A stretch of 53,392 nt of DNA from Candidatus Didemnitutus sp. GTDB lineage: Bacteria; Bacteroidota; Ignavibacteria; Kapaibacteriales; Kapaibacteriaceae. Shown piece after piece: positions 4,904-52,989 of this stretch (positions are counted from its first letter, which is position 1; every line of letters starts with the position of its first letter). Location of the stretch: the NCBI GenBank assembly GCA_035299365.1, contig DATGWS010000268.1:1-53392 (forward strand), given 5' to 3'. The notes beneath the pieces are model-generated. The model was given only the letters and a program-made list of their open reading frames with translations. It made no database searches and was not told where the DNA came from. A program made the translations under genes and the position numbers.

Positions 4904-4963
4904 ATTGTCCATAGGATTGTCCATAGGATTGTCCATTGAATTGTCCGTATTAATGTCCAGAAT
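4904..4963. repeat. Five tandem 12-bp units (ATTGTCCATAGG-type iterons)
   Basis: The units are ATTGTCCATAGG x2, ATTGTCCATTGA, ATTGTCCGTATT and AATGTCCAGAAT, head to tail. A sixth copy, ATTGTCCATATG, lies at 5007..5018 and overlaps the fic start codon. Confidence 0.8.
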
Positions 4964-9184: not shown

Positions 9185-11152
9185 ATGAGAACTCTCATGT
9201 ATGCCCTTGCAGCCTCTATTCTTTTTTGTGGCAGTGTGGTAAAGGGATGGGCTTCGCCGACCGATTCATCCGGCCGCATGGTTGTGAACGAAGGAACATT
9301 GTTCCGCGTGATCGGCATCCCGCCTGCGCTTGCGCCGGGAGAACTGGCAACGCCCCCTTTCCAGAAGCTCATTCTCACAAGTCGATACAACGCAACAGTT
9401 GTGGTCAATGGTAACCGCATCTCTTTGAAGGCGGACTCCATCGTTGTCCTGAACGCAGATGATGATGGACCGATCACGCTCGAAGGAGATCTGGCACCTT
9501 TCTCCGTCTACACGTATCAAGATCTCTACGGGAACGGGGAGATGGCCTATCACCTTCCATTTCATCCGGGATCAACGGAGTTCTTTCCGTTCTCGTGGTG
9601 GCAAGATTCCTACAGCGTAGAAGGCACAGCACGCACAACCATTGGTGCCAAGACCTATGTAGTGCCACTTACATCACAGGAGACGGTGGTACGCATCAAT
9701 AGGCACGGGAGTACACAAGACACAACGATACGTGTTGACGAATACCTCGAGATAGACGAACCGATCGTAGAGAATGGTACGCGAAACACCGTCACCGACC
9801 CAACGGGCTTCTCGATCACTGCTTCATTGCCTGTTTCGGTTGTGAGCGGACATCCCAAGGCAGCAGTTCTCCGATATCCGGACGGATTGCCGTACACAGG
9901 ACCATATGCACGTCCTGCCTCTCGGTCGCGAGGCAATCTCCATGATGCGATGCTTCCGTCGATGTATGCCGGTGTGACGTTTGTGACCGTTCCGTTGCTG
10001 TACACACCAACGCGTATTCGCGGTCTTGATATGACTGACCAAGGTATCGAAGATGATAGAGGTGATGTGGTTCGCTTTATCGGGCTCCATGATTCAACGC
10101 TGATCTACAAGCTTACCTCAACAGACACCGTGCTCATTGATACAATCCTTGGCCGTGGCGACACATGGTATTCGTCGCGAGTAGAGGTCCCATCCGTTTG
10201 GACCACCTCCCGTCCGGTGCTCTGCGCGCAATACGGCAAGTCCTACGGACGCATCACGTCACAAGCTACCGACCCGGCCGACGATCCGTCCGTGGATGCT
10301 GGTCAGCCCCTTCTTCAGGTGGTTCCCAACGTAGAGCGATGGACAGACCACAGTGTATTCCTCGCTCCGGAGGAGACATCGAACTTTCTCAATGTTGCCT
10401 GTCGCGTAGATGATGCGAATACGATCTTTGTTGATGGCCGTGCCATCGGCTCGGTGTTGCGCAGACACGACATCAGCGGCACGCCGTACACATCCTTCAG
10501 CGGACTTGTCTCGAGCGGTAGGCACATCATTACCACCACTTCGTCCGAGGCTCGCTTTGGTGCTTGGACGTATGGTTCGCTTGATGGACTCCAGCTGGGC
10601 AAGATCTACGGCTCCATGACGGGCATGGACTATGCAGTTGATTGTGACGATTCCCTGGTGGTTGATGTCACGGTTGTTGATGCAGACAGTGTTCGCATAA
10701 CCTATCGTGCAGAGCCGCAAAGTCTATCATGCGCAGACATCGCCTATGCCGTAGTTGAGCATATCACAGGGGGCTCCTACCGTTCCAACGGATCGGTGAT
10801 TATGATCCACCGTGATTCAACCTTTGCTGTTGACGGCAACGTTTTGGTTGTAGCACGCAGCGGTCGATTCGTTCGACGTTCATTCCACCTCGATGGGGTC
10901 ACGTCGGTTCACGAGCAGGTGCCATTCAACGCATCGATCAGACCGAATCCTGCACCGGATATCTGTCATATCGCTCGTGCCGATAACCAACTGCTCACAG
11001 GTACGGTGGAGATCCTCTCCGTTCTTGGATTGAGGATGATGAGCTTTGATGTACGTGGTGTACATGAGCTTGTTGTTGACGTACAGTCTCTCCCACCAGG
11101 TGCCTACATTGTATCAGGAGCCGGCCTCAACGGTGTGATTCTGCATCCATAG
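9185..11152 (+). CDS. Large secreted protein with T9SS C-terminal sorting domain (possibly IgGFc-binding-N-like core)
   Basis: It has a signal peptide. The C-terminus reads IRPNPAPD...LPPGAYIV. The central FGAWTYGS..YGSMTGMD region resembles IgGFc_binding-type domains (memory only). Confidence 0.6.
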   Translation: MRTLMYALAASILFCGSVVKGWASPTDSSGRMVVNEGTLFRVIGIPPALAPGELATPPFQKLILTSRYNATVVVNGNRISLKADSIVVLNADDDGPITLEGDLAPFSVYTYQDLYGNGEMAYHLPFHPGSTEFFPFSWWQDSYSVEGTARTTIGAKTYVVPLTSQETVVRINRHGSTQDTTIRVDEYLEIDEPIVENGTRNTVTDPTGFSITASLPVSVVSGHPKAAVLRYPDGLPYTGPYARPASRSRGNLHDAMLPSMYAGVTFVTVPLLYTPTRIRGLDMTDQGIEDDRGDVVRFIGLHDSTLIYKLTSTDTVLIDTILGRGDTWYSSRVEVPSVWTTSRPVLCAQYGKSYGRITSQATDPADDPSVDAGQPLLQVVPNVERWTDHSVFLAPEETSNFLNVACRVDDANTIFVDGRAIGSVLRRHDISGTPYTSFSGLVSSGRHIITTTSSEARFGAWTYGSLDGLQLGKIYGSMTGMDYAVDCDDSLVVDVTVVDADSVRITYRAEPQSLSCADIAYAVVEHITGGSYRSNGSVIMIHRDSTFAVDGNVLVVARSGRFVRRSFHLDGVTSVHEQVPFNASIRPNPAPDICHIARADNQLLTGTVEILSVLGLRMMSFDVRGVHELVVDVQSLPPGAYIVSGAGLNGVILHP

Positions 11153-23204: not shown

Positions 23205-23246
23205 ACAACGCTCTTCATCCATTGTTCTATGCGAACAAGAATCATC

Positions 23247-23307
23247 GCATTATGGCAACTCTGATGCCATTTTGCAATGCATTATGGCAACTCTGATGCC
23301 ATTTTGC
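23247..23307. repeat. Tandem duplication (period 32 bp) of a 29-bp hairpin-plus-T-tract unit
   Basis: GCATTATGGCAACTCTGATGCCATTTTGC occurs twice (23247..23275 and 23279..23307). Each copy contains ATGGCA-ACTCTGA-TGCCAT followed by TTTTG. The site lies between convergent gene ends. Confidence 0.8.
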
Positions 23308-23320
23308 GACATACAGCCCC

Positions 23321-24778: not shown

Positions 24779-25207
24779 ATGAATGCAGAACTCACTCTCG
24801 CAGTGGAAACTCTCAAAGCAGCCAAGAATATTGCTGTTGTAGGTCTTTCTCGAAATCCCGGCAAGTCTGCTCACGATATACCCCTGTTCATGGCTAGTGC
24901 CGGGTACAACATCATCGGTGTTAACCCCCACGCCACACCTGCAGTAGCCACCGTTCCCGTGGTGGACACTCTACTGGATGTCCCCTTTACAATCGATATC
25001 GTTAATGTTTTCCGTCCTTCTGAAGACACAGATGCCATTATTGATCAAGCCATCACACGTAAATCACAACGTGGAGACGTGTCCTGCATCTGGCTTCAAC
25101 AAGGGATCACAAGCAAACACGGCGCTGTCAAATGTGCTGCAGCAGGCATCACGTATCTCGAGGATACGTGTATCTATGTCATTCAGCAATATGTGCATGC
25201 CCTCTAG
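24779..25207 (+). CDS. CoA-binding domain protein (YccU-like)
   Basis: It has a Rossmann-type IAVVGLSRNPGKSAHDI motif and the typical length of about 140 aa. Confidence 0.75.
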   Translation: MNAELTLAVETLKAAKNIAVVGLSRNPGKSAHDIPLFMASAGYNIIGVNPHATPAVATVPVVDTLLDVPFTIDIVNVFRPSEDTDAIIDQAITRKSQRGDVSCIWLQQGITSKHGAVKCAAAGITYLEDTCIYVIQQYVHAL

Positions 25208-25209
25208 GT

Positions 25210-25228
25210 CCCATGACATCGTCATGGG
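25210..25228. other. Hairpin CCCATGAC-ATC-GTCATGGG (module hairpin, copy 1)
   Basis: Perfect 8-bp stem with a 3-nt loop. It starts 2 nt after the CoA-binding gene stop and ends 9 nt before the heptamer array. Confidence 0.8.
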
Positions 25229-25237
25229 CCACCAACT

Positions 25238-25342
25238 CTATTCGCTATTCGCTGTTCGCTGTTCTCTGTTCTCTGTTCTCTGTTCGCTATTCGCTGTTCT
25301 CTGTTCGCTGTTCGCTGTTCTCTATTCGCTGTTCTCTATTCA
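25238..25342. repeat. Heptanucleotide tandem array, 15 x CTRTTCK
   Basis: A hand parse gives 15 phased units: CTATTCG x2, CTGTTCG, CTGTTCT x3, CTGTTCG, CTATTCG, CTGTTCT, CTGTTCG x2, CTGTTCT, CTATTCG, CTGTTCT, CTATTCA. Apart from the final CTATTCA, only positions 3 and 7 vary. Confidence 0.95.
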
Positions 25343-25356
25343 TGACTTTCGTCATG
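25341..25356. other. Hairpin CATGAC-TTTC-GTCATG closing the array
   Basis: 6-bp stem with the same CATGAC/GTCATG arms as the hairpin at 25210. Confidence 0.7.
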
Positions 25357-25408
25357 GTATGCCCCCTCCCAACTCCCTAGATTCCCTTTGTCATCTAGGA
25401 GACCCCTC

Positions 25409-26176
25409 ATGAAACGCATTTTCACTACCGCTTTCGTATCACTTGCCGCGTCCGTATTGATCGGCTCATGTGGGCTGACAGATTCAGACCCCGCAGATCC
25501 CAATGATCCGGTAGGGGGCACTACAGAACTCGAGGACACAGAGCCCGGGGCACGGCACTCAGCCTATCCGGAATTGGGAGACTGGTTGCCGGATGAAATG
25601 ACGCCTCGAGATAGCATCATCATCAAGTCGAGGAATAACGGCGTAGTGGTGGTGGATTTTAATGTGACCTTTGACACAGCATTCACCCTCCGACTCGACA
25701 CGCTCCTGGGAACAACCATTCTACCCGTAGATGCCAAAAAGTCCCTGATCGATACCTACCTAGCTCAGTATGGGGCTACCCTGGATACCACCAACAAAGA
25801 CCGCATGATCATTCATGCAGAACCCAAGTTCCGCGTATCCTCAGAAGGCATCCAAGACTTTGTAGCATCCAAGGGCGATGAGTCCAAGCCTTTCACTATC
25901 ATCAAATACAACATGAACGTGGGAGACAGCTGGTCATTCACGCGCTCCGATGGCGTGAAAATCACTCGCAAGGTTGTGTATCACTCAACAGATGATGACT
26001 ACGAAGTGATCTTCTGGAGACTCAAGGTCTTCAAAACCGAACAAGTTCAAGAGAACGACCCGCTGCTCTCAAAGATCATCTGGGTTACCAACCATAAATA
26101 TGGCCTCGTTGGCGTTCACATCTTCGATAAAGCTGGCAAGGAGATCCCGATAACGATCGCTCCCCCATCGCTTTAA
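25409..26176 (+). CDS. Hypothetical lipoprotein
   Basis: The ATG at 25409 gives MKRIFTTAFVSLAASVLIGSCG with a lipobox. AGGAG lies 8 nt upstream. Confidence 0.6.
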   Translation: MKRIFTTAFVSLAASVLIGSCGLTDSDPADPNDPVGGTTELEDTEPGARHSAYPELGDWLPDEMTPRDSIIIKSRNNGVVVVDFNVTFDTAFTLRLDTLLGTTILPVDAKKSLIDTYLAQYGATLDTTNKDRMIIHAEPKFRVSSEGIQDFVASKGDESKPFTIIKYNMNVGDSWSFTRSDGVKITRKVVYHSTDDDYEVIFWRLKVFKTEQVQENDPLLSKIIWVTNHKYGLVGVHIFDKAGKEIPITIAPPSL

Positions 26177-26180
26177 ATGT

Positions 26181-26199
26181 CCCACAACTTCGTTGTGGG
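26181..26199. other. Hairpin CCCACAAC-TTC-GTTGTGGG (module hairpin, copy 2)
   Basis: Perfect 8-bp stem with a 3-nt loop, 4 nt after the lipoprotein stop. It has the same architecture (CCCAYRAC-N3-GTYRTGGG) as the hairpin at 25210. Confidence 0.8.
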
Positions 26200-26201
26200 C
26201 T

Positions 26202-26257
26202 CTGTTCTCTGTTCGCTATTCGCTATTCGCTATTCGCTATTCGCTGTTCGCTGTTCA
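26202..26257. repeat. Heptanucleotide tandem array, 8 x CTRTTCK
   Basis: The units are CTGTTCT, CTGTTCG, CTATTCG x4, CTGTTCG and CTGTTCA. The last unit contains the stop codon (26255..26257) of the convergent minus-strand gene. Confidence 0.95.
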
Positions 26258-27202
26258 CCAGGGTGTCCACGACACGGCCAACGCCGGCGCTACATTTGGA
26301 CCGGGCAGGAGTGTAAGCCCAAAGTCGAACGTCATTGCAGTGTTGCACTGGCGGAGTCCAAGGAACAACGCGCTTTGAGATGGCCGTGTGAGATCTGCGT
26401 TCCACAACTCACCTAAGAAATGCAGGTCATGCATCTCAGGGAATCGCACGTCCATCATAAAGGCAACGCCGATGGTACCGTTGGCGTAGGGGAACGTAAA
26501 GGGATCAAAAAGAGTACCGCCACTCACAACGTAGGACTCCTTGCCGGCAACCTTGGCATGAATCATTGTGCTGATGCGCGTGCGTTTACCAGTGAATGTG
26601 GCAACGCCGTAGATGTGACCCATGAAGTTCACATCGTTGATCCACGAGCCGTTTACGCCAAAGGCATAGATCTGCTTGCCCCCTTCCACCAATCCATTCT
26701 TGCCCTCATACACAGTGCCCTTGATGTTCACGGTGCTGAATTGGTTCTGCCATCCAATGCCGGGCACAACTGTTCGCCCGCCGGTGATGCTCATGAAGTT
26801 TGCAATTCCTACGCCAAGAGTTGGCATCACACCTTCTACGAGCGCGATATAGTGGTCGCTCTTGATAGCCTCGGCTGTAGGCAGGATCAAACCTCTGTTG
26901 CGTGCACGATACGATTCTTCCAACAAGCCGATCCATGAGATTTCTGCTGCATAGATCTTCGCTCTACCAAACGGAGTCTTGATGCGGATATAAGCGCCAA
27001 CGGAATCAGATGCTGTTTCGCTTACTGGACCCGAAACCACATCGCCGTTCACAAGACGTACGTAGTAGTCTAACTCGGTATCAAACTCATACTGCTCAAG
27101 TGCGTCGTCTGACATGCCCTGCTGTGCCGTGAGTGGTGGTGCACCTACAAGTGTGCATACCAGCACGATACATCCGAGTATGAGTTTGTGCAGGGGGCTC
27201 AT
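26255..27202 (-). CDS. Hypothetical secreted protein
   Basis: The ATG at 27202 gives the signal peptide MSPLHKLILGCIVLVCTLVGAPPLTAQQ. The start overlaps the rlmN stop in an ATGA arrangement. Confidence 0.55.
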   Translation of the reverse strand: MSPLHKLILGCIVLVCTLVGAPPLTAQQGMSDDALEQYEFDTELDYYVRLVNGDVVSGPVSETASDSVGAYIRIKTPFGRAKIYAAEISWIGLLEESYRARNRGLILPTAEAIKSDHYIALVEGVMPTLGVGIANFMSITGGRTVVPGIGWQNQFSTVNIKGTVYEGKNGLVEGGKQIYAFGVNGSWINDVNFMGHIYGVATFTGKRTRISTMIHAKVAGKESYVVSGGTLFDPFTFPYANGTIGVAFMMDVRFPEMHDLHFLGELWNADLTRPSQSALFLGLRQCNTAMTFDFGLTLLPGPNVAPALAVSWTPW

Positions 27203-28308
27203 TGGCCCGCCCCTTCTTGAGAGAATGCGAGCTGACCGCATGCTGCGTCGATGTCGAGTCCGGCAGACGAACGTACATTCACTTGGACATCTTCTGCACG
27301 TAGACTATCGGCAAACCATTGAAATTGCTCCGGTGTAGACGGCTTGAGCGACATATCAAACCCTTCCGGGAGTGCGAAGTCGATCTCATGGAAGGGGATC
27401 AAATTCACACGTGTTGGCATCCGTCTTGCCAGCTTACCCAACCGCTTCACATCGGCAAGGCTGTCATTGATCCCATTGAAGAGAATGTACTCATAGGTCA
27501 CAGACTTGCGTGTCTTCCGATAGTAGTACTCAAGTGCCTCGATCAATTCCGGCAGTTGATGTTTCTTTGCAATAGGCATGAGTTCTGCGCGCACATCCTG
27601 CACCGTTGCGTGCAAGGACACGGCGAGCTTGATGATCTGACCTTCGTCGGCCATACGCACGATCCCAGGCACAACACCTGCCGTAGAGATGGTTACGCGA
27701 CGAGGCGCTACCATCTTTGTTCGCTGATCCGTAAAGATCTGTGTTGCACGCATCACTTCATCATAGTTATTCATCGGCTCACCCATCCCCATGAACACAA
27801 TGTTCGTGATGGGCTTGGTAGAGAATTTTTGCGCTTGGAGAAATTGATCTACGATCTCACCCGACGTGAGATTACGCGCCAATTTTAGCGACGCTGTGGC
27901 ACAGAACACACATCCAAGATTACATCCTACTTGAGTAGAGACACAGAGCGTAAGTCTTCGAGGGTGCTCACCATCCGGTACCATCTCACTTGGGATAAGT
28001 ACACTTTCAACTGCTCGCCCATCCCAAAGCTCAAAGAGAAACTTCTTTGTTCCATCAGCAGACTCTTGCACGGTCTGCAGCTTCACACTTTGCGTACGAT
28101 ACTCAGATCCAAGTTTCTCACGCAACGCATGCGGCAATAGCGCCATCTCCTGCACAGTGTCCAGCCGCTGGATGTAGATACCATCGTAGACCTGCTGCGC
28201 ACGATACTTGCGCTCGCCCGCATCCACGAACATCTTCTCAAGCTCACCTAGGGGATGCCCCTTGAGCTCAATCGGTCCGTCCACTATGTCCCGCTTTGCT
28301 TTTGCCAT
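27199..28308 (-). CDS. rlmN: 23S rRNA/tRNA adenine-C2 methyltransferase, radical SAM
   Basis: It has the CxxxCxxC cluster GCNLGCVFCATA, GMGEP and the C-terminal DIDAACGQL. Confidence 0.9.
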   Translation of the reverse strand: MAKAKRDIVDGPIELKGHPLGELEKMFVDAGERKYRAQQVYDGIYIQRLDTVQEMALLPHALREKLGSEYRTQSVKLQTVQESADGTKKFLFELWDGRAVESVLIPSEMVPDGEHPRRLTLCVSTQVGCNLGCVFCATASLKLARNLTSGEIVDQFLQAQKFSTKPITNIVFMGMGEPMNNYDEVMRATQIFTDQRTKMVAPRRVTISTAGVVPGIVRMADEGQIIKLAVSLHATVQDVRAELMPIAKKHQLPELIEALEYYYRKTRKSVTYEYILFNGINDSLADVKRLGKLARRMPTRVNLIPFHEIDFALPEGFDMSLKPSTPEQFQWFADSLRAEDVQVNVRSSAGLDIDAACGQLAFSQEGAGQ

Positions 28309-28333
28309 TGTTCTTCCTCTTCACAATTTCACT

Positions 28334-29467
28334 CTAGCACATTAGCACACTAGCACATTGCACGGCCACATTCGACGAAATCGCTACACCCATTCCATTG
28401 CATCCAAAGGCTACCACACAGTGCGGTGAGACGTTCCCAACATACGGTTGTTTTGTTGCCGTAAACGCCATCGTACCCGCCCAGCGGTGCTCGATCTCCA
28501 GTTCCGGATGGTTTGGCAGGATCACCGTGCGAAGCATGTTCTCCAACACCGCCTGAATATGCTCCGTTGTCTGGTGCGACGTAGTGCGTTCCCCTTCAAA
28601 GTCCAGGTTCCGCCCGCCCCCTAACAACACCCTGTTTCCAACCGATCGGAAGTAGTAATAGCCCTCATCGGCATGAAAGGATCCCTTGAGTTTTAGGTTG
28701 GTAAGGGGCTTGGTGACGATTACTTGACCTCTTCCGGGGAGGATCTCAGGTAGAGTTGCAGCGGGAACGAGACTCGGAATCATTGCGTTGGTGGCAACTA
28801 CTGTTTGTCGGGCAGTAATCACAATATCCTGATGAGCAGTGCGAACATCAAGTTCTACAGTCGTATCAGTATCACGTATGGACACAACCTCTGCGCCGGT
28901 TCGAATGTGCACACCGGCACGAGTAGCCAAGTCCCACAAGGCACTGATCAGTTTGCCGGAATGCAGCGTTCCCTCAAAGGGAGTGAACATCAACGTAGAG
29001 ACTGCCGGGGTTAGACCATACGCTGCAATGAGGTCATTACGTTGTGTGAACGCAGCACAACCAAAAATTGGAGCAAGCAGATCATTCACTTCTTCTAGAC
29101 GAGAGAGCGACGGATGATCTTCGAGGAAGATCTCCGAGCCACCATCCTCAGTATACCCAACATCATAACCAGAGCACCGTTCTCGTAGGAGTGTAAGTCC
29201 ATCAAGACGTTGTTGCACGAGGTTGCGTGCGGCATCGGTGCCCATGAGGTCGATGTCCGAGGCGATCTCGCTCAACGAACCTACACAGGCAAAGCCTGCA
29301 TTGCGCGTTGAAGCTCCTGTAGGCAGCAGATTGCGCTCTAAAAGCAGAACGCGCCACTCGGGGTGGCGCGTTGCACATTCAATTGCTGTGTTGACTCCGA
29401 TGATACCGCCGCCGATGATAACTACGTCATACGTCAGCCACGATTCATGTTCCCAAAAACTTCTCAT
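28334..29467 (-). CDS. FAD-dependent oxidoreductase (DAO family)
   Basis: N-terminal dinucleotide fold YDVVIIGGGIIGVNTA, with length and pattern typical of the DAO family. Confidence 0.8.
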   Translation of the reverse strand: MRSFWEHESWLTYDVVIIGGGIIGVNTAIECATRHPEWRVLLLERNLLPTGASTRNAGFACVGSLSEIASDIDLMGTDAARNLVQQRLDGLTLLRERCSGYDVGYTEDGGSEIFLEDHPSLSRLEEVNDLLAPIFGCAAFTQRNDLIAAYGLTPAVSTLMFTPFEGTLHSGKLISALWDLATRAGVHIRTGAEVVSIRDTDTTVELDVRTAHQDIVITARQTVVATNAMIPSLVPAATLPEILPGRGQVIVTKPLTNLKLKGSFHADEGYYYFRSVGNRVLLGGGRNLDFEGERTTSHQTTEHIQAVLENMLRTVILPNHPELEIEHRWAGTMAFTATKQPYVGNVSPHCVVAFGCNGMGVAISSNVAVQCASVLMC

Positions 29468-34580: not shown

Positions 34581-36332
34581 CTACTGCACCACGAATAAGC
34601 GAACAACACTATTGATCGTGTTCCCCGCAGCCCCCTCAACCACTAGTCGGGCATAATACGAGCCGGCCGGAAGAGCTATATCTGCCGCACCGGAAGAACT
34701 AATTGAAAACTCTCGGATACCTGACCGGAGTTTTGTGGTAAGGTCTACACGGACCTGTCCAAGTGCATCAATTACATCCAGTCGCCCATTCTGTGCCGGG
34801 ACATTTGCAATCCTCAGAGTCGATTGCGAAACAACCGGATTAGGGTCCACATCCGCCACAAGCGTCCCCTGCATCGGGTTCACATATCGCGGACGTCCAT
34901 CCTGATATCTCCAGACATTGGTAACGAGTACCACGGATGAATGTGGTTCTACGGGCCTAATTCCATTGTTCGTTGTGATGGAGGCTTCGGTGATGGTAAG
35001 GGGCGTGCGGTCCGCATCACCCAGGACAATTACACCACGAGCCTGACCTATCACCTGTCCGCTGCTTCCGATAAGCACGGAACCATTAAGCCCCGTCTTA
35101 CCCACTTTGAGGATGGACCTATCATCAATCACATCACGTTGTTGGCCGCTTTGCAAGAGCGCAACGAACATCGTGGGGTTGTAGGTAACGTCGCATACAA
35201 AGGACTGCAAAGAAAGGGGCACATCAATGGGGTCATCTGTGGTAACCACTACGTCAAACGTAGCAGTGTCCCCAATCCGATGGTAGAACGTATCTGCTAC
35301 AAAACCCATCGAAAGGGTAACCGGACGGGGTACCATCGTGAGGTTCACAACAATATTCGTAGAGTCTATGGCATCTCTTCCGGGCAGTGTTCTGCGCAGG
35401 ACAAAGCCATATCGTCCGTCGCCAAAAGTTGTTGGCGCACACGTTACCTCTACCAATATCCGGTTCTCCTTTGTAGGGTTCTTTGTGAGGAGGAGGGCGG
35501 TAGTAACTGTACTCTGTACTTCTTTTGGCTCAATGGCGTACGAAAACTCCTGCGAATGCACCTGTGTACCAAGTTCAACGGCAATTGTATCCTTGCGTAC
35601 TTGACCCACCATCATGTTGGTAAATACTGTAGCCTTCTCTGCGGGCATCCGAACACCATTGCCCATAAAGTAGACAACGATGGTGTCAAGGGGCTTCCCT
35701 GTCTGCCTATGAATCCGAACTAAACCAAGAGAATCAATTCTCCGCCCTACGGTATCTGGCTGGTAAGAGAAGGCAAAGGCCAGTGTGTCACCTAGTTCAG
35801 CAGGAATGCGGTTGAGGAGTTGGAATGGCTCTTCCAATGATCCATCGATCTCCCATCGGGATTCATCAGCCAGATCTTTGCGGATGAAGACCAGCCTTCG
35901 ATTAGAGTCACCGATAAGCACGTTCCCAAATTCGATCTTCTCATCACGAACCAATCGGAAGGCTGTGCCAAAGAGTCGGAGCCGGATCTGGTCATTAGGG
36001 GGCGGAACAGCCGGACGTCTCTCGAGAATGATCTCGTCACGGTAATCCTTTGGATCGAGAGGAGCAAACTCAACACGTATCCGAATCTCGCCGTCGGATA
36101 TCATCAGATCCTGGGGTTTGGTCTTCATCGTGTACGGTGAGCGACAAGAATCCACAACGACAAAACCACCGGTGCCCACAAGCCCGCCAATCCGCACCTC
36201 AAGCTCCTTCCGCGTACCTATAGGCATCGGCGGGAAGTTCATGGACTCATTGATGACCCTAACCGGCTGCGCCTCTACAAGGGCCGGAAGGGCGCTCAGA
36301 ATCAAGAATAGAATGATGATGTGTTTTTGCAT
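34581..36332 (-). CDS. Secreted protein with T9SS C-terminal sorting domain
   Basis: It has a signal peptide. The C-terminus reads VDPNPVVSQSTLRI...LPAGSYYARLV...RLFVVQ. Confidence 0.65.
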   Translation of the reverse strand: MQKHIIILFLILSALPALVEAQPVRVINESMNFPPMPIGTRKELEVRIGGLVGTGGFVVVDSCRSPYTMKTKPQDLMISDGEIRIRVEFAPLDPKDYRDEIILERRPAVPPPNDQIRLRLFGTAFRLVRDEKIEFGNVLIGDSNRRLVFIRKDLADESRWEIDGSLEEPFQLLNRIPAELGDTLAFAFSYQPDTVGRRIDSLGLVRIHRQTGKPLDTIVVYFMGNGVRMPAEKATVFTNMMVGQVRKDTIAVELGTQVHSQEFSYAIEPKEVQSTVTTALLLTKNPTKENRILVEVTCAPTTFGDGRYGFVLRRTLPGRDAIDSTNIVVNLTMVPRPVTLSMGFVADTFYHRIGDTATFDVVVTTDDPIDVPLSLQSFVCDVTYNPTMFVALLQSGQQRDVIDDRSILKVGKTGLNGSVLIGSSGQVIGQARGVIVLGDADRTPLTITEASITTNNGIRPVEPHSSVVLVTNVWRYQDGRPRYVNPMQGTLVADVDPNPVVSQSTLRIANVPAQNGRLDVIDALGQVRVDLTTKLRSGIREFSISSSGAADIALPAGSYYARLVVEGAAGNTINSVVRLFVVQ

Positions 36333-36368: not shown

Positions 36369-36431
36369 AGTTACTAGTTACTAGTTACGAGTTACGAGTT
36401 ACTGGTTACGAGTTACGAGTTACCAGTTACT
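36369..36431. repeat. Heptanucleotide tandem array, 9 x AGTTACK (second family)
   Basis: The units are AGTTACT x2, AGTTACG x2, AGTTACT, GGTTACG, AGTTACG, AGTTACC and AGTTACT. The last unit contains the ftsI stop codon (TAA at 36429..36427, minus strand). Confidence 0.95.
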
Positions 36432-38490
36432 CAGCGTAGACGATACAGGTTTCGCCTTCCCATTGTTGGCGAACGACTCGCCCGGATCCTTTGATCCGTA
36501 CATCGTAGCCGGCGGCATGGAGGACGGTAACTGCGCGTCTGAGGGGGAATCCGAATACATCGGGGTGCTGGTGAGCCCCTTGTTGTGCTTGGCCTTCAAC
36601 CTTTACGACTGAGCCGCGCTCGAGTCTGGAGCCGTTGGCGGGGGTTTGGCGCATGATAAGGCCATTGCCGGTGGGCATCTCTGCGCGAAGGCCGAGTCTG
36701 TGGAGGACGCTGTCTGCCGTTTGGAGAGCAAGGCCCCGCACGTCAGGAACGATAACAGTGTCTGCCTCGGCTGAGGCGGCAATCCGTTGTTGAGTAGCTG
36801 CGTCCAACTTCAGCATCGTCATGGTCTTCTGTACGATACGCCGAAAGATTGGTGCCGCTGTTGTTCCGCCATAGATGCTGGTTGTAGGTCTGTCCAACAT
36901 CACGATCATGGCCACGCGAGGTTTATCTGCCGGGTAATAGCCAACAAAGGAAGCGGTATAGTTCTTTCGGCCGTATTCGCCCTGCGTTAACTGTTGGGCT
37001 GTGCCTGTTTTTCCCGCGATTCGCACTCCGGTAATTCGTGCTTCTTGACCTGTGCCTCGTTCAACAACACCAACAAGCATTTCTGTGAGGATGCGAGCAG
37101 TCTCTGTGCTAACAACTCGACGTATCTGTTGCGGTGGTATCTCTGATGTGACCTTACCATCGCTGGCCAACAAGGCCTTTACAACGCGTGGCTGCATCAG
37201 CACACCTCCGTTGGCAATAGCCGCATATGCGTCAAGAACCTGGAGTGCCGTAGCACTTACCTCGTATCCGAAAGACATGTATTGTTTTGTTGATTGATCA
37301 AACTCATTCGGACGTTTGAGTCTGCCTCGCACCTCACCCGGAAGGTCTATGCCACTAGGAATGCCGAAGCCGAAGTCGCGCACGTATTTGTAGTAGACGC
37401 GGTCATCAAGCTTGCGCGACAACGTGGCGAAAACAACATTGGACGATTGCTCCATTGCACCGGCAAACGTTGTTTGACCCACGGGGTGGTCGTCCTTGAT
37501 CTGCACGCCCCCTGACATCATCAGAATTCCATTTCCTCCATCCACCTTGTCTGTTGGAGCAAGTTTCCGTTCCTCCAACAGGGCAGCAGCGGTTATGGCT
37601 TTCATCGTTGACCCGGGCTCGTATTGGTCTGTTACGGCACGAATACGAATGGCATCGTCATTAGCCTTATCCAATCTGTTGGGATCGAAACTTGGATACG
37701 AAGCCATTGCGAGGATCTCACCTGTTGATGGCTCGATGGCTATCACTGTTCCGGAGAGAGCGCCGCTTTCTCTAACACCACGTGCGAGTTCTTGCTCGGC
37801 AACACGTTGCATTTCGAGATCAATCGTGAGTTGTAGTCCCTGACCGTCTCGAGGTGCTTCGCGTTCGGGATCTACGCCCGGACGGAGTCTTCCCCTACCG
37901 TCGCGTTGCATAACAACAAAGCCGCTCTGTCCACGGAGAATGCCATCGTAATGGAGTTCAAGTCCCGTCAACCCATTGTTATCTACATCTGTTGTTCCTA
38001 TCACCTGCGCGGCTAGCGGTCCATGAGTGAAGGACCGTTTTGGTTCCTTAACCCGGATAAGCCCCCTATCACGGATCGTATCGAGAACAGGAAACATCAC
38101 AGTGTTCACACCGCGTGCAAGCCATACAAATCGAGCCTGTGTTGAGCGGAGGCGGTCCAGATAACTCTGTGCAGATTCACCGGCGGCAGCTGAAAGAAGC
38201 TGAGCACACATCTCCGGATGTTCTATCATGCTTGGGTCTGCAGCAAACGACGTGGTCTTCATCATCGTTGCCAGGTCTCGCATTTCGCGGTCGAGCAGTC
38301 TACCGCGCTCTGCACGCAACGGTACCCTGCTCTCGTATTGCTTCTTTGCAAGATCTCTATACCGAGCCCCTTCTACAACCTGCACCCAGAAGAGTCTTCC
38401 GAGAATGATCATGAAGGCTACAGAGAAGACCAACGTGAGCAGGCCCGACTTCCATCGAATGGGTTCGTATGGTTGGGACTGTTCGTTCAC
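36427..38490 (-). CDS. ftsI: Penicillin-binding protein / peptidoglycan D,D-transpeptidase FtsI with two C-terminal PASTA domains
   Basis: Motifs are GSTMK, SSN and KTGT. The two C-terminal repeats of about 60 aa (VPDVRGL...VKVEG and PDVFGFPLRRAV...) look like PASTA domains. The GTG start overlaps the ftsL stop. Confidence 0.85.
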   Translation of the reverse strand: MNEQSQPYEPIRWKSGLLTLVFSVAFMIILGRLFWVQVVEGARYRDLAKKQYESRVPLRAERGRLLDREMRDLATMMKTTSFAADPSMIEHPEMCAQLLSAAAGESAQSYLDRLRSTQARFVWLARGVNTVMFPVLDTIRDRGLIRVKEPKRSFTHGPLAAQVIGTTDVDNNGLTGLELHYDGILRGQSGFVVMQRDGRGRLRPGVDPEREAPRDGQGLQLTIDLEMQRVAEQELARGVRESGALSGTVIAIEPSTGEILAMASYPSFDPNRLDKANDDAIRIRAVTDQYEPGSTMKAITAAALLEERKLAPTDKVDGGNGILMMSGGVQIKDDHPVGQTTFAGAMEQSSNVVFATLSRKLDDRVYYKYVRDFGFGIPSGIDLPGEVRGRLKRPNEFDQSTKQYMSFGYEVSATALQVLDAYAAIANGGVLMQPRVVKALLASDGKVTSEIPPQQIRRVVSTETARILTEMLVGVVERGTGQEARITGVRIAGKTGTAQQLTQGEYGRKNYTASFVGYYPADKPRVAMIVMLDRPTTSIYGGTTAAPIFRRIVQKTMTMLKLDAATQQRIAASAEADTVIVPDVRGLALQTADSVLHRLGLRAEMPTGNGLIMRQTPANGSRLERGSVVKVEGQAQQGAHQHPDVFGFPLRRAVTVLHAAGYDVRIKGSGRVVRQQWEGETCIVYAE

Positions 38491-49832: not shown

Positions 49833-50834
49833 ATGAAGTACTCCATCATTGTGGCCGTCTTTAACAGGCCGGACGAACTCGACGAGCTCCTTGAGAGCCT
49901 TACTTTTCAGTCGTTCACGGACTTTGAGATCATCATCGTCGAGGACGGCTCTACGGTAAGCTCAGAAGCCGTGTGTGCCCGATATGCCGGACGGCTTACC
50001 ATCCGTTACTTCTTCAAGGACAATAGTGGTCCTGGACCATCCCGGAATTATGGTTGTAGGCGTGCCTCGGGTGACTATTTCCTTTTCATCGATTCCGATT
50101 GCACCGTGCCCCCTCACTACCTCTCCTCAATAGATGCAGAGGTTTCTGAGAAGGGGCTTGACGCATTTGGGGGTCCGGACAGGGAACACGAGCGTTTCAC
50201 TCCCGTGCAAAAGGCCATAAGCTATGCGATGACATCGTTCCTTACCACCGGTGGTATCCGAGGTGGCAAGGTTCGTGTTGGCGGTGTCTTTCACCCACGC
50301 TCATTCAACATGGGTATCTCACGCGAAGTCTTCAATGCTACGGATGGCTTTGCCCGCATGCGTTTTGGGGAAGACGTGGAGTTCAGTATTCGCATGATGT
50401 CCATGCGATACAACGTGCAACTCATTCCCAACGCATGGGTCTACCACAAACGGCGTACAGATCTCAAGAAATTTTTCAAGCAGGTCCACAACAGCGGCAT
50501 AGCGCGTATCAATATCACGCTGCGTCACCCCGGCACGTTAAAGATTACCCACTTCTTCCCAACTGCTTTTACCCTCTACGTGGTACTCGCACTCGGCTAT
50601 ACCCTCTTTGCGCCATACGGCTGGATAACACTGATTCCATTAGGCGTCTACACACTTGCCCTCTTTATCGAGAGCTCACTTCGTTATCACTCTGCCATAT
50701 CCGGACTTCGATGCGTCCAAGCATCCTATGTGCAACTCATCGGCTATGGCACCGGCTTCATCCGCGGCATGATCTGGCGCGTTATCCTAAACAAGCCTGA
50801 GCAAGGGGCTTTTGAGAAAACGTTTTATGAATAG
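49833..50834 (+). CDS. Glycosyltransferase family 2 with C-terminal TM helices
   Basis: The sequence reads YSIIVAVFNRPDEL...IIIVEDGS...FIDSDC (DxD). The C-terminal third is hydrophobic. Confidence 0.8.
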   Translation: MKYSIIVAVFNRPDELDELLESLTFQSFTDFEIIIVEDGSTVSSEAVCARYAGRLTIRYFFKDNSGPGPSRNYGCRRASGDYFLFIDSDCTVPPHYLSSIDAEVSEKGLDAFGGPDREHERFTPVQKAISYAMTSFLTTGGIRGGKVRVGGVFHPRSFNMGISREVFNATDGFARMRFGEDVEFSIRMMSMRYNVQLIPNAWVYHKRRTDLKKFFKQVHNSGIARINITLRHPGTLKITHFFPTAFTLYVVLALGYTLFAPYGWITLIPLGVYTLALFIESSLRYHSAISGLRCVQASYVQLIGYGTGFIRGMIWRVILNKPEQGAFEKTFYE

Positions 50835-50924
50835 CGAATAGCGAATAGTGAATAGCGAATAGTGAATAGTGAATAGTGAATTATAAATTTGATTCTGAAT
50901 TCGCTATTCGCTATTCGCTGTTCT
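50828..50924. repeat. Inverted pair of heptamer arrays filling a convergent intergenic gap: 7-8 x YGAATAG, a 15-nt spacer, then 3 x CTRTTCK
   Basis: The left arm (50828..50883) is the reverse complement of the CTRTTCK family, and its first unit contains the GT2 stop TAG. The right arm (50899..50924) is GAATTCG-CTATTCG-CTATTCG-CTGTTCT, and its last unit contains the stop of the minus-strand gene. Confidence 0.9.
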
Positions 50925-51741: not shown

Positions 51742-52989
51742 TTACGTGAGTCGTTCGCGGACGCTGAATCGTTGGTGTTCGAGGTTATTCTTCACAATAA
51801 GCTCACCGATGAGACCGATCGAGATGAGTTGCACACCTACGATGATCATGGCAATTCCAAAGAGGGCAAGAGGACGATTACTGAGGGACGTAAGCCCCAG
51901 GAACCACTCAACAACAAGATAGAGGTCCGTTACCAATCCAACGATAGCAAAAAGGGAACCAACAGCACCAAAGAAGTGCAGGGGGCGCTTAATATACCTT
52001 GTGGTAAACATCACGGTCAGGAGATCGAGGTACCCTTTCAGGAATCGGCTCATTCCAAACTTCGAGGAGCCGAACTGGCGAGCGCGATGTTGAACAGGAA
52101 TCTCGGTTACGCGAAATCCCTCCCAATGTGCTAGAGCCGGAATGTATCTGTGCATCTCGCCGTATACCTGTACACTATTCACAACGTCTCTACGATAGGC
52201 CTTGAGACCACAGTTGAAGTCGTGGAGCTTTATGCCACTCATGCGCGAGGTAACGGAGTTAAAGAGCTTCGACGGTATGGTCTTGTGCCAAGGGTCGTGA
52301 CGTTTGCGCTTCCATCCCGACACGAGGTCGAAGCCTTCTTCGAGCTTCGAAATCATAGCCGGAATTTCAGCCGGATCGTCTTGGAGATCCGCGTCCATAG
52401 TGATCACGATGTCGCCCTTGCTCTCAGCAAAGCCAATCGCTAATGCGGCAGACTTTCCATGATTTGTACGGAATCTAATGGCCTTGAAGCGGTTGTTTCG
52501 AGTATGCAGGTCTTGGATAACACCATATGAATCATCCGTAGAGCCGTCATCGATGAAAAGAACCTCGTAGCGTCCGCGGGCAACTCGTTCAAGGACCGTT
52601 TCTAGTTGTCGGGCCAATTCGGGAAGTGACTCTGCTTCGTTCAATAGCGGTACTACGACCGACACGGATGAACTACCAAGGTGTTCTGTCCTAGTACGCC
52701 GATCGCCCCGTTGGTTCTGCGGCCGGGATTGCTCTCTACGCCCATGATCGTGACGTGACGGTTCAGAACGTGGTTGCTCGGAACGCTGCTGTTCGGAACG
52801 CTGGTGTTCAGAACGCTGGTGTTCAGAACGTGGTTGTTCGGAACGTGAATACTCAAATCGCGATTGTTCTACGCGCGGTTGTTCAGGACGTGGGTTCTCT
52901 GCTCGTGGACCTTCGGAAGCTGCACCGTCCGGTCTTCTACGTGGTCTACGCCTGCGCGATGGTCTGTGGCCTTGTTGTTCTTCACTCAT
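51742..52989 (-). CDS. GT2 polyprenyl-phosphate glycosyltransferase (DPM1/GtrB/ArnC-like) with a repeat-built disordered N-terminus
   Basis: The core reads VSVVVPLLNE...FIDDGSTDDS...TMDADLQDDP and is followed by two C-terminal TM helices. The ATG at 52989 (MSEEQQGHRPSRRRR) is preferred. The N-terminal about 100 aa are RSEQP/RSEHQ-type repeats. Confidence 0.8.
   Translation of the reverse strand: MSEEQQGHRPSRRRRPRRRPDGAASEGPRAENPRPEQPRVEQSRFEYSRSEQPRSEHQRSEHQRSEQQRSEQPRSEPSRHDHGRREQSRPQNQRGDRRTRTEHLGSSSVSVVVPLLNEAESLPELARQLETVLERVARGRYEVLFIDDGSTDDSYGVIQDLHTRNNRFKAIRFRTNHGKSAALAIGFAESKGDIVITMDADLQDDPAEIPAMISKLEEGFDLVSGWKRKRHDPWHKTIPSKLFNSVTSRMSGIKLHDFNCGLKAYRRDVVNSVQVYGEMHRYIPALAHWEGFRVTEIPVQHRARQFGSSKFGMSRFLKGYLDLLTVMFTTRYIKRPLHFFGAVGSLFAIVGLVTDLYLVVEWFLGLTSLSNRPLALFGIAMIIVGVQLISIGLIGELIVKNNLEHQRFSVRERLT
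52761..52895. repeat. About 9 tandem 15-bp units (GTTCRGAACGYKGKT-type), in frame inside the GT2 N-terminus
   Basis: The units include GTTCAGAACGTGGTT, GCTCGGAACGCTGCT, GTTCGGAACGCTGGT, GTTCAGAACGCTGGT and GTTCAGAACGTGGTT. On the minus strand they encode the pentapeptides RSEQP/RSEHQ/RSEQQ. Confidence 0.85.

Follow-up and report, generated by a model that had tools for sequence, protein, structure and literature searches.

An intergenic array of the heptamer CTRTTCK joined to a REP-like palindrome in a clade of Kapabacteria

A module composed of a hairpin, a linker and a tandem array of the heptanucleotide CTRTTCK recurs at several intergenic sites in a clade of Kapabacteria, and can form the entire spacer between two convergent stop codons. 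The element is, on balance, best described as a lineage-specific mosaic intergenic repeat, in which a GTAG-tagged REP-like palindrome is combined with a hypervariable heptamer repeat of the LSSR/STRR class. The arrays belong to a known class of bacterial intergenic heptamer repeats, with the unit CTRTTCK and its link to a REP-like palindrome representing the new features. Three CTRTTCK loci and one array of another heptamer are present in the window, i.e. the whole stretch of 53,392 nucleotides (contig DATGWS010000268.1) that was analysed. The locus downstream of a CoA-binding protein gene, which the original prediction had described as a single composite, is thus one copy of a dispersed family.

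Organisation of the array locus

The fifteen-unit CTRTTCK array in the window is flanked by a CoA-binding protein gene and a gene coding for a predicted lipoprotein, and the following features could be distinguished:

24779-25207, plus strand: CoA_binding_2 gene, 142 aa, from the ORF list (PF13380 on the identical protein; TAG stop codon at 25205-25207)
25210-25228, no strand: hairpin H1, CCCATGAC-ATC-GTCATGGG, a REP-like palindromic unit with an 8-bp stem, 2 nt past the stop codon
25229-25237, plus strand: 9-nt linker CCACCAACT between H1 and the array
25238-25342, plus strand: heptamer array of 15 units (105 nt), 14 perfect CTRTTCK and CTATTCA
25341-25356, no strand: hairpin H2, CATGAC-TTTC-GTCATG, sharing 2 nt with the last array unit
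25357-25408, plus strand: conserved leader 5' of the downstream coding sequence, whose ATG (25409) is preceded by AGGAG at a distance of 8 nt
25409-26176, plus strand: downstream gene, a predicted lipoprotein with a signal peptide ending in LIGSC and no Pfam family

This layout agrees with the original prediction, where an 8-bp-stem hairpin 2 nt past the stop codon, a fifteen-unit array with a deviant last unit and a closing hairpin with CATGAC/GTCATG arms had been proposed. The fourteen perfectly phased CTRTTCK units (25238-25335) vary only at positions 3 (A/G) and 7 (G/T) and are followed by CTATTCA (25336-25342), and TRF assigns the array a period of 7 with a score of 132. The three-unit CTRTTCK pattern, when allowing at most one mismatch, is matched 23 times in the window, against no matches in 100 dinucleotide-preserving shuffles. 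The linker opens with CCAC, which reads as GTGG on the minus strand and represents a degenerate form of the CTAC/GTAG tag of relatives, while at the other end the left arm of H2 runs on from the last repeat unit. The array is separated from the ATG of the lipoprotein gene by 67 nt. All four arrays in the window are intergenic, located between ORFs, and two ORFs, 24978-25412 and 25132-25380, pass through the fifteen-unit array. Both share sequence with the CoA_binding_2 gene in a different reading frame and are artefacts, which bears out the earlier view of a non-coding array.

Additional arrays in the window

Four further elements were identified in the window:

26181-26199, no strand: second H1-type hairpin, CCCACAAC-TTCG-TTGTGGG, with an 8-bp stem, 4 nt past a TAA stop codon
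26202-26257, plus strand: second CTRTTCK array of eight units, which fills a convergent spacer
36369-36430, minus strand: array of a different heptamer, about nine units, reading AGTTACK (plus) or TAACTNG-type (minus)
50828-50924, no strand: inverted array pair of the CTRTTCK family, with (GAATAGY)n at 50828-50881 and (CTRTTCK)3 at 50904-50924

The separate CTRTTCK loci share the same three unit variants. The hairpins at 25210 and 26181 differ by two base pairs, with the changes compensated on both sides of the stem. The last unit (CTGTTCA) of the array at 26202-26257 provides the TGA stop codon of the minus-strand gene at 26255-27241, and the inverted pair at 50828-50924 constitutes the entire 88-nt spacer between two convergent genes, with the TAG of the preceding plus-strand gene lying inside the first array unit. 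At both of these sites the stop codon of the flanking minus-strand gene touches or lies within the last unit. Most arrays are found at the 3' ends of genes, and their neighbours are ordinary housekeeping genes (acetyltransferase, CoA-binding protein, lipoprotein, RlmN, glycosyltransferases and PBP).

Distribution of the module among relatives

The best named relatives of the lipoprotein (25409-26176) occur in 'Candidatus Kapabacteria' and 'Ignavibacteria' MAGs and Por_Secre_tail (T9SS sorting) domains are present in window proteins, both of which support the FCB-group host suggested from the sequence letters. The original prediction had also called for a scan of relatives. In L125 (JADJFS010000002.1) and L128, whose loci are syntenic with the window at ~80-84 % nucleotide identity, the hairpin-linker-array module is present at both orthologous sites. 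The module in L125 consists, in order, of CCCATGAC-N3-GTCATGGG, a CTAC(T/A)GA(C/A)TTCATTC linker, (CTGTTCK)n, the core CCTCGACTACGCTCGGCATGAC and (CTATTCK)n, with its first locus also incorporating the 5' leader and a closing hairpin as in the window, the H2 counterpart reading CATGAC-TTTC-GTCATAG. The L125 site orthologous to the hairpin at 26181 reads CCCATGAC-TTC-GTCATGGG. H1 units are located at 9448, 9794 and 10799 and CTRTTCK arrays at 9861 and 10856 of L125, and the array that comprises 15 units in the window has ~10 units at the orthologous site. The metagenome contig L231 contains the module twice, with one module starting with four tandem copies of a 43-bp hairpin and linker. Overall, two copies of H1 were found in the 53 kb window, three in 20 kb of L125 and six in 3.8 kb of L231, all of which are extragenic; the portion of the array-bearing genomes covered (window, L125/L128 and L231) amounts to ~90 kb, such that a 'high copy number' is an extrapolation. 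The setting is convergent at 5/8 hairpin or array sites, and two modules in relatives are located between divergent genes. When seven copies from three genomes were aligned, H1 and the following C(T/C)AC formed the only invariant block. A candidate core motif, CCTCGACTACGCTCGGCATGAC, was rejected, as it occurs in L125 and L231 and is missing from the window. A metagenome scan for the hairpin yielded 120 matches, mostly unrelated palindromes, some of them beside a TnpB-like ORF; only L128 and L231 clearly belong to the H1-array family, and L168, L172 and L205 carry the hairpin with the CTAC tag and no arrays.

No heptamer arrays were found in the more distant relatives L124, L126, L247, L250, L251 and L252. 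In L124 the same two genes have conserved C-termini and stop codons only 2 nt apart, where the corresponding spacer is 78 nt of hairpin and array in the window and 205 nt in L125. Given the missing module in the distant relatives and the adjoining stop codons in L124, the module was gained in one clade and does not represent an ancestral required signal. The array-free L251 contains only GTCATAG, an ancestral 5'-UTR sequence equivalent to the right arm of H2 (GTCATRG), which indicates that H2 arose where the element meets the native leader.

Variability of the arrays and recombination between modules

The populations represented by L125 and L128 are 99.7 % identical, with 30 substitutions in 11.2 kb and only three indels. 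One of these (1 nt) mends a frameshift in the L125 lipoprotein gene, and the other two fall within arrays, one of heptamers (21 nt, three units) and one of octamers (8 nt). The arrays are indel hotspots, whose length changes in multiples of seven between near-identical populations. Among the uses proposed for the array in the original prediction was that of a slippage-prone spacer, the slippage component of which is borne out by the 21-nt indel. The copy number comparison proposed alongside it likewise revealed variation, in this indel, in the difference in length between the window and L125 and in the order of units, which in metagenome contig L003 differs from that in L001, L002 and L004.

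A role as recombination substrate, which had also been put forward, is suggested by a small gene flanked by the module in a relative. In L125, a gene coding for a 78-aa membrane protein is situated between two identical copies of H1 and linker. The array-free L251 has this gene in the same place, and no part of the window contains it. If the two direct H1 and linker copies recombined, exactly the arrangement observed in the window would result, and the comparison of these loci suggests that repeat recombination probably deleted the 78-aa gene in the window lineage.

Relationship to known heptamer repeats

Among the long simple-sequence repeats of prokaryotes, heptamers predominate, according to Mrazek 2007 as cited in two later studies (PMC4679880, PMC4692102). 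Slippage has been proposed as their cause, and several heptamer families are known without proven function (PMC4679880, PMC4692102), including the cyanobacterial STRR, GGGNATC of Xanthomonas and Nostoc, and TAACTGA of Beggiatoaceae, Cyanobacteria and Bacteroidetes (PMC4692102, PMC4679880). The CTRTTCK arrays resemble these LSSR/STRR repeats in their head-to-tail 7-nt unit, in a copy number of two to more than twenty, in their intergenic location and dispersal over many loci, in the co-occurrence of several heptamer families in one genome, and in their sporadic phylogeny, with close relatives lacking arrays and the contigs of relatives breaking in the repeats. The cyanobacterial STRR heptamers are CCCCAGT, TTGGTCA and CAACAGT, and CTRTTCK is neither a rotation nor a complement of any of these, so that the earlier assessment of an STRR-like format with a different sequence holds. 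CTRTTCK matches no described unit, and neither the exact repeat strings nor the hairpin-array composite were found in the searchable literature. The arrays further differ from the known families in their host phylum (Ignavibacteriota/Kapabacteria) and in being physically joined to a conserved palindrome. The array at 36369-36430 partly resembles the TAACTGA repeats. Its minus-strand units (TAACTCG, TAACTAG or TAACCAG) represent TAACT with two variable bases, and it precedes the start codon (ATG at 36332) of the minus-strand gene at 34581-36332 by 37 nt. Direct TAACTGA repeats are found in forward orientation within ~40 nt upstream of a start codon (PMC4679880), and the array thus agrees with them at 5/7 positions of the unit and in its placement.

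Leaving aside the matches to the search pattern, heptamers with other units formed 22 arrays across unrelated genomic loci totalling 831 kb, compared to four arrays of period 8 and none of periods 5, 6, 9, 10 and 11. A period of 7 is therefore generically favoured, in agreement with Mrazek 2007 as cited (PMC4679880, PMC4692102). Stretches of (CTRTTCK)4 occur in at least 119 genome stretches from many phyla. CTRTTCK gave 46 viral-contig stretches, against 41, 9 and 16 for three permuted heptamers of the same composition. As some permuted heptamers are about as common, the CTRTTCK unit is not special, and CTRTTCK was rejected as a special cross-phylum motif, with the permuted controls arguing against horizontal transfer or a universal function. 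A universal rule by which a hairpin precedes the array was similarly discarded. Perfect stems of at least 6 bp were found upstream of nine and downstream of ten of 108 arrays from the 119 pan-bacterial loci, with no difference in flank folding energies (Wilcoxon p 0.73), and this lack of side bias across phyla indicates that the hairpin-array composite is specific to the present lineage. Array orientation relative to the flanking genes was unbiased in the 119 loci (21 vs 29 among co-directional pairs) and divergent spacers were the least frequent class; the gene calls for these loci are crude and ORF-based, and the flank classes are thus indicative only.

Relationship to GTAG-tagged REPs

The GTAG REPs are stem-loops of 20-40 bp, with stems of 6-9 bp, short loops and an unpaired GTAG, for which GTGG is an accepted variant (PMC3733652). 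They follow ORFs, in spacers between unidirectional or convergent genes, and form tandem clusters that carry flanking DNA as well as sub-families with complementary stem changes (PMC3733652). The general form of H1 is CCCAYRAC-N3-GTYRTGGG followed by CTAC, which reads GTAG-CCCATGAC-N3-GTCATGGG on the opposite strand. H1 is a perfect palindrome of ~19 nt whose stem (8 bp) and loop (3-4 nt) fall within the limits of the REPs, and in most copies an unpaired GTAG or GTGG is found at one foot. CTAC follows the stem in 3/3 copies in L125 and 5/6 copies in L231, and the window copies are followed by CCAC (GTGG) at 25229 and by CTCT, which is not a GTAG-like tag, at 26200. Further likenesses include the extragenic location, for the most part shortly after ORFs and in convergent spacers, the complementary stem changes, the head-to-tail tandem clusters with flanking DNA and, as in REP/BIME mosaics, the combination with other repeat motifs (PMC3733652; RAYT-associated REPs, PMC8266576). 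Unlike the known examples, H1 occurs in a phylum outside those reported, with no GTAG REPs described from Bacteroidetes, Chlorobi or Ignavibacteria (PMC3733652), and BIMEs are not built with heptamer arrays. A Pfam scan of 20 window proteins and the gene lists of L124-L126, which cover a small part of any genome, revealed no RAYT/Y1 transposase. The mobility of H1 is thus hypothetical, and its membership of the GTAG-tagged REP family, judged from sequence features, is plausible.

A more far-reaching interpretation is that hairpin and array together form a single, undescribed kind of non-autonomous mobile element in Ignavibacteriota, i.e. a GTAG REP mobilised by an HUH/Y1 enzyme. This is considered unlikely. 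If it were true, the 7-nt array would be both produced and exploited by REP processing or by a binding protein dedicated to it, and many bacterial heptamer arrays would have spread inside small palindrome elements, rather than through slippage in place. Arrays in Saprospiraceae are always joined to the conserved sequence CTGTTAAAGTTTAACTGGCAAAGATAAG and those in Alphaproteobacteria come as inverted pairs, which hints at spread by mobile elements.

Secondary structure and relation to transcript ends

The RNA of H1 is predicted to fold at -12.3 kcal/mol (z -3.5), that of H2 at -7.3 kcal/mol (z -3.8) and that of the second H1-type hairpin (26181-26199) at -11.5 kcal/mol, while the inverted array pair (50828-50924) gives a predicted RNA hairpin of -45.8 kcal/mol on the plus strand and -32.6 kcal/mol on the minus strand. 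In contrast, the direct array reaches -2.0 kcal/mol, against -7.4 +/- 2.1 kcal/mol for its shuffles, and is less structured than 200/200 of these. The gap had been considered 'almost entirely structured'; as the array folds worse than its shuffles, the gap is instead patterned, with two hairpins around a structure-free pyrimidine-rich stretch. CTRTTCK is not G-rich and no G-quadruplex is thus expected. An Rfam search of the whole window at the gathering threshold identified only a tRNA, and a permissive scan of 25100-26400 yielded no match.

The array hairpins are located 2-4 nt past stop codons, and in this position a GC-rich hairpin resembles an intrinsic terminator. In a scan for the terminator consensus the hairpin at 26181, with its T-rich tail, passes, whereas H1 at 25210 fails because its tail is CCACCAACT. 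The lack of a canonical U-tract at 25229 (CCACCAACU) sets H1 apart from intrinsic terminators and makes such a role uncertain. The inverted arrays likewise resemble terminators in forming a long hairpin between convergent genes. Unlike terminators, however, the H1-type hairpin is also found between divergent genes in relatives, and is missing at the orthologous sites of relatives in which the genes themselves are conserved. The hairpins probably mark the 3' ends of transcripts, as an analogy with REP/BIME elements suggests. Stable hairpins beside stop codons may thus act as 3'-end structures, serving as terminator or as exonuclease block, inverted array pairs may act as long bidirectional hairpins between convergent genes, and the direct array may constitute a structure-free pyrimidine-rich spacer with no sequence-specific role. 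REPs of E. coli within 15 nt of a stop codon can interfere with translation termination.

Alternative functions of the array

The strict phasing of the array, in which 5/7 positions hardly vary and TTC is almost always retained, could be explained by a cooperative protein-binding platform on DNA or RNA, with copy number setting occupancy. The omega heptads of pSM19035, whose consensus is WATCACW, offer a precedent. The ribbon-helix-helix protein omega/ParB of this plasmid binds contiguous 7-bp heptads (PMC9499535, PMC2441792), with functional arrays requiring at least four contiguous repeats and tolerating either orientation (PMC9499535). The CTRTTCK arrays equally comprise four or more contiguous, gap-free 7-bp repeats, are found in both direct and inverted arrangements, share 7-10 copies as a likeness with the omega heptads and, at 7-15 copies, are similar to functional heptad arrays (PMC9499535). 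The same three unit variants at separate loci also favour such a platform, which in its RNA version would resemble a proposal made for the TAACTGA repeats. However, the consensus differs, and the omega heptads lie at plasmid promoters and a centromere, adjacent to their cognate omega and delta genes, whereas the CTRTTCK sites are spacers at chromosomal gene 3' ends that lack genes of this kind in their vicinity. Specifically, no ribbon-helix-helix protein with a ParA and arrays at their promoters was found near the arrays, and no candidate binder or ParA-type gene adjoins any array in the approximately one third of window ORFs scanned with Pfam. The arrays are missing in relatives with the same genes, and their orientation in the 119 loci is unbiased, as judged from crude gene calls. 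Furthermore, viral contigs contain control heptamers at a similar frequency and other bacteria have arrays of many unrelated heptamer units, which makes a cognate protein for each improbable. A binding platform is therefore viewed as doubtful.

The weak structure of the array RNA, its pyrimidine content of 71-86 % with a UC dinucleotide every 7 nt, and its length of ~100 nt starting ~30 nt past the stop codon are consistent with a rut-like Rho-loading zone, which would effect termination or polarity between the CoA-binding protein and lipoprotein genes. A sigma-70 promoter scan revealed no site at or past the array, as would suit this scenario, and no Bacteroidetes-type TAnnTTTG promoter was observed by eye. 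The content of C (~29 %) only modestly exceeds that of G (~19 %), however, such that the richness of the array is in T and not in C. Where the flanking genes converge, the purine-rich complement is read by one of them, two modules sit between divergent genes, and pan-bacterial co-directional pairs show no strand preference. Rho loading is thus rather improbable.

A contingency locus is a still more doubtful proposition. Here, slippage would tune lipoprotein expression by phase variation, through spacing or leader length, which would fit with an array situated 67 nt upstream of the ATG of a surface-type gene, with a copy number that varies between populations and species and with a sole observed heptamer-array indel (21 bp) equivalent to two helical turns. 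However, other arrays lie between convergent stop codons, where there is no promoter to tune, no promoter element spans the array, and heptamer arrays in free-living bacteria are generally unlinked to surface genes (PMC4679880).

Finally, an assembly artefact, in the form of a collapsed or expanded repeat, is extremely improbable. Short-read assemblers typically break at repeats, and the contigs of four independent metagenome assemblies all stop inside the array, ~30 nt in, so that the exact copy number in the window is not verifiable from these contigs; yet all four share an identical CoA-binding protein gene, H1 and the first 4-5 array units, an 886-kb MAG contig and an independent JGI contig of 12 kb both run through homologous arrays and agree bar one 21-nt indel, and the order of the unit variants within the array is non-periodic. 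The independent assemblies thus confirm a genuine array.

Proposed origin and implications

Under the preferred reading of a mosaic intergenic repeat, the palindrome module would have been gained by insertion or dispersal, the arrays would expand and contract through slipped-strand mispairing from a short seed (..CATTCGCTATTC..) in the module tail, and the module copies would recombine with one another, with the module DNA being largely neutral or selfish. A point against this reading is that array variation is found mainly at positions 3 and 7, with TTC nearly invariant. Such a pattern can be the result of either neutral slippage or selection for a binding motif.

No other long simple-sequence repeats are as over-represented in bacteria as heptamer arrays. 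The locus described here provides a clean comparative case, in which two species of one clade carry the module at orthologous sites and their relatives lack it, and in which a three-unit indel between near-identical populations and a probable repeat-mediated gene deletion can be observed. In practical terms, short-read assemblies of Kapabacteria/Ignavibacteriota genomes are interrupted at the arrays, which also give rise to spurious ORFs. That the arrays are joined to a REP-like palindrome with a GTAG tag, in a phylum from which no GTAG REPs were reported, suggests a testable route for the dispersal of heptamer arrays.

Intergenic tandem repeats of the window

Tandem repeats are generally abundant in the spacers of this genome, and further ones in the window, with their counterparts in the syntenic metagenome-assembled contig L125 (JADJFS010000002.1), are as follows:

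4904-4959: intergenic tandem repeat of the 12-mer ATTGTCCATAGG, 3.6 copies
23245-23311 (L125 7386-7452): perfect 32-nt tandem, GCATTATGGCAACTCTGATGCCATTTTGCAAT, 1.9 copies, between convergent genes
28326-28363 (L125 13051-13084): octamer array, TAGCACAT, ~3.8 copies, between rlmN and the next gene
36369-36430, read on the minus strand: second heptamer family, ~9 units of TAACTCG, TAACTAG or TAACCAG
50828-50924: inverted heptamer arrays, forming the whole 88-nt spacer that separates a glycosyltransferase gene from a convergent gene of unknown function
52761-52847: intergenic tandem repeat of a GTTCGGAACGTGGT-like 15-mer, 5.9 copies

The 32-nt tandem shares 98.5 % identity with its L125 counterpart, as opposed to only ~80-83 % for the flanking coding DNA, and may encode a conserved small RNA, contain a binding site or be the scar of an insertion. 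The L125 copy adjoins an extra AAA_14/DUF4143 gene. L125 and L128, a JGI contig 99.7 % identical to it, differ by a single 8-nt unit in the octamer array orthologous to that at 28326-28363.

Both the unit and the placement of the second heptamer family resemble those of the TAACTGA repeats of Beggiatoaceae, Cyanobacteria and Bacteroidetes (PMC4679880). This array starts directly after the stop codon of a PBP/transpeptidase gene (36430-38490), and 37 nt separate its end from the ATG of the downstream gene at 34581-36332. By computed folding, the inverted arrays at 50828-50924 form a ~25-bp hairpin, at -45.8 kcal/mol for the plus strand and -32.6 kcal/mol for the minus strand, with the first GAATAG unit containing the TAG of the plus-strand gene.

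Small membrane-protein and lipoprotein genes in relatives

Upstream of the lipoprotein gene, two relatives encode a predicted membrane protein of 78 aa, with 55 % identity between them, no gene for which occurs anywhere in the window:

L125 9510-9746: 78-aa membrane-protein gene
L251 (a more distant relative lacking heptamer arrays) 1936-2169: 78-aa membrane-protein gene

Two identical copies of the hairpin and linker bracket this gene in L125. Relative to L128, a 1-nt deletion at position 10465 divides the L125 lipoprotein gene itself into parts of 168 and 87 aa; this probably reflects an error in the long-read assembly, not a pseudogene.

Hairpins and heptamer arrays in other genomes

The hairpin and linker also occur as a head-to-tail, REP-like cluster in one metagenome contig:

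L231 775-930: four tandem 43-bp units, each a hairpin (CCCATGAC-TGC-GTCATGGG) followed by CTACAAAATCATTCGCTATTCCAA

Here, 1.5 heptamer units are already present within the linker. Two unrelated metagenome contigs (L213 and L237) carry CCCATGAC-TKMA-GTCATGGG hairpins in inverted orientation, ~4.1 kb apart, adjoining a 377-aa ORF that is TnpB-like in appearance (MVKLNPNKKQYQIL..). Stems of this kind therefore have a further use, as end hairpins of the IS200/IS605 type.

Among Saprospiraceae metagenome-assembled genomes (L005, L009, L016, L037, L039, L074, L109 and L118), (CTGTTCT)n is regularly followed by the conserved CTGTTAAAGTTTAACTGGCAAAGATAAG and then by inverted heptamers; inverted pairs of (CGAATAG)n and (CTATTCG)n are found in Rhizobiales-type genomes (alphaproteobacterial loci L040, L054, L056, L062, L096, L107 and L119). 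Heptamer arrays are components of larger, genome-specific composite repeats in other phyla too.
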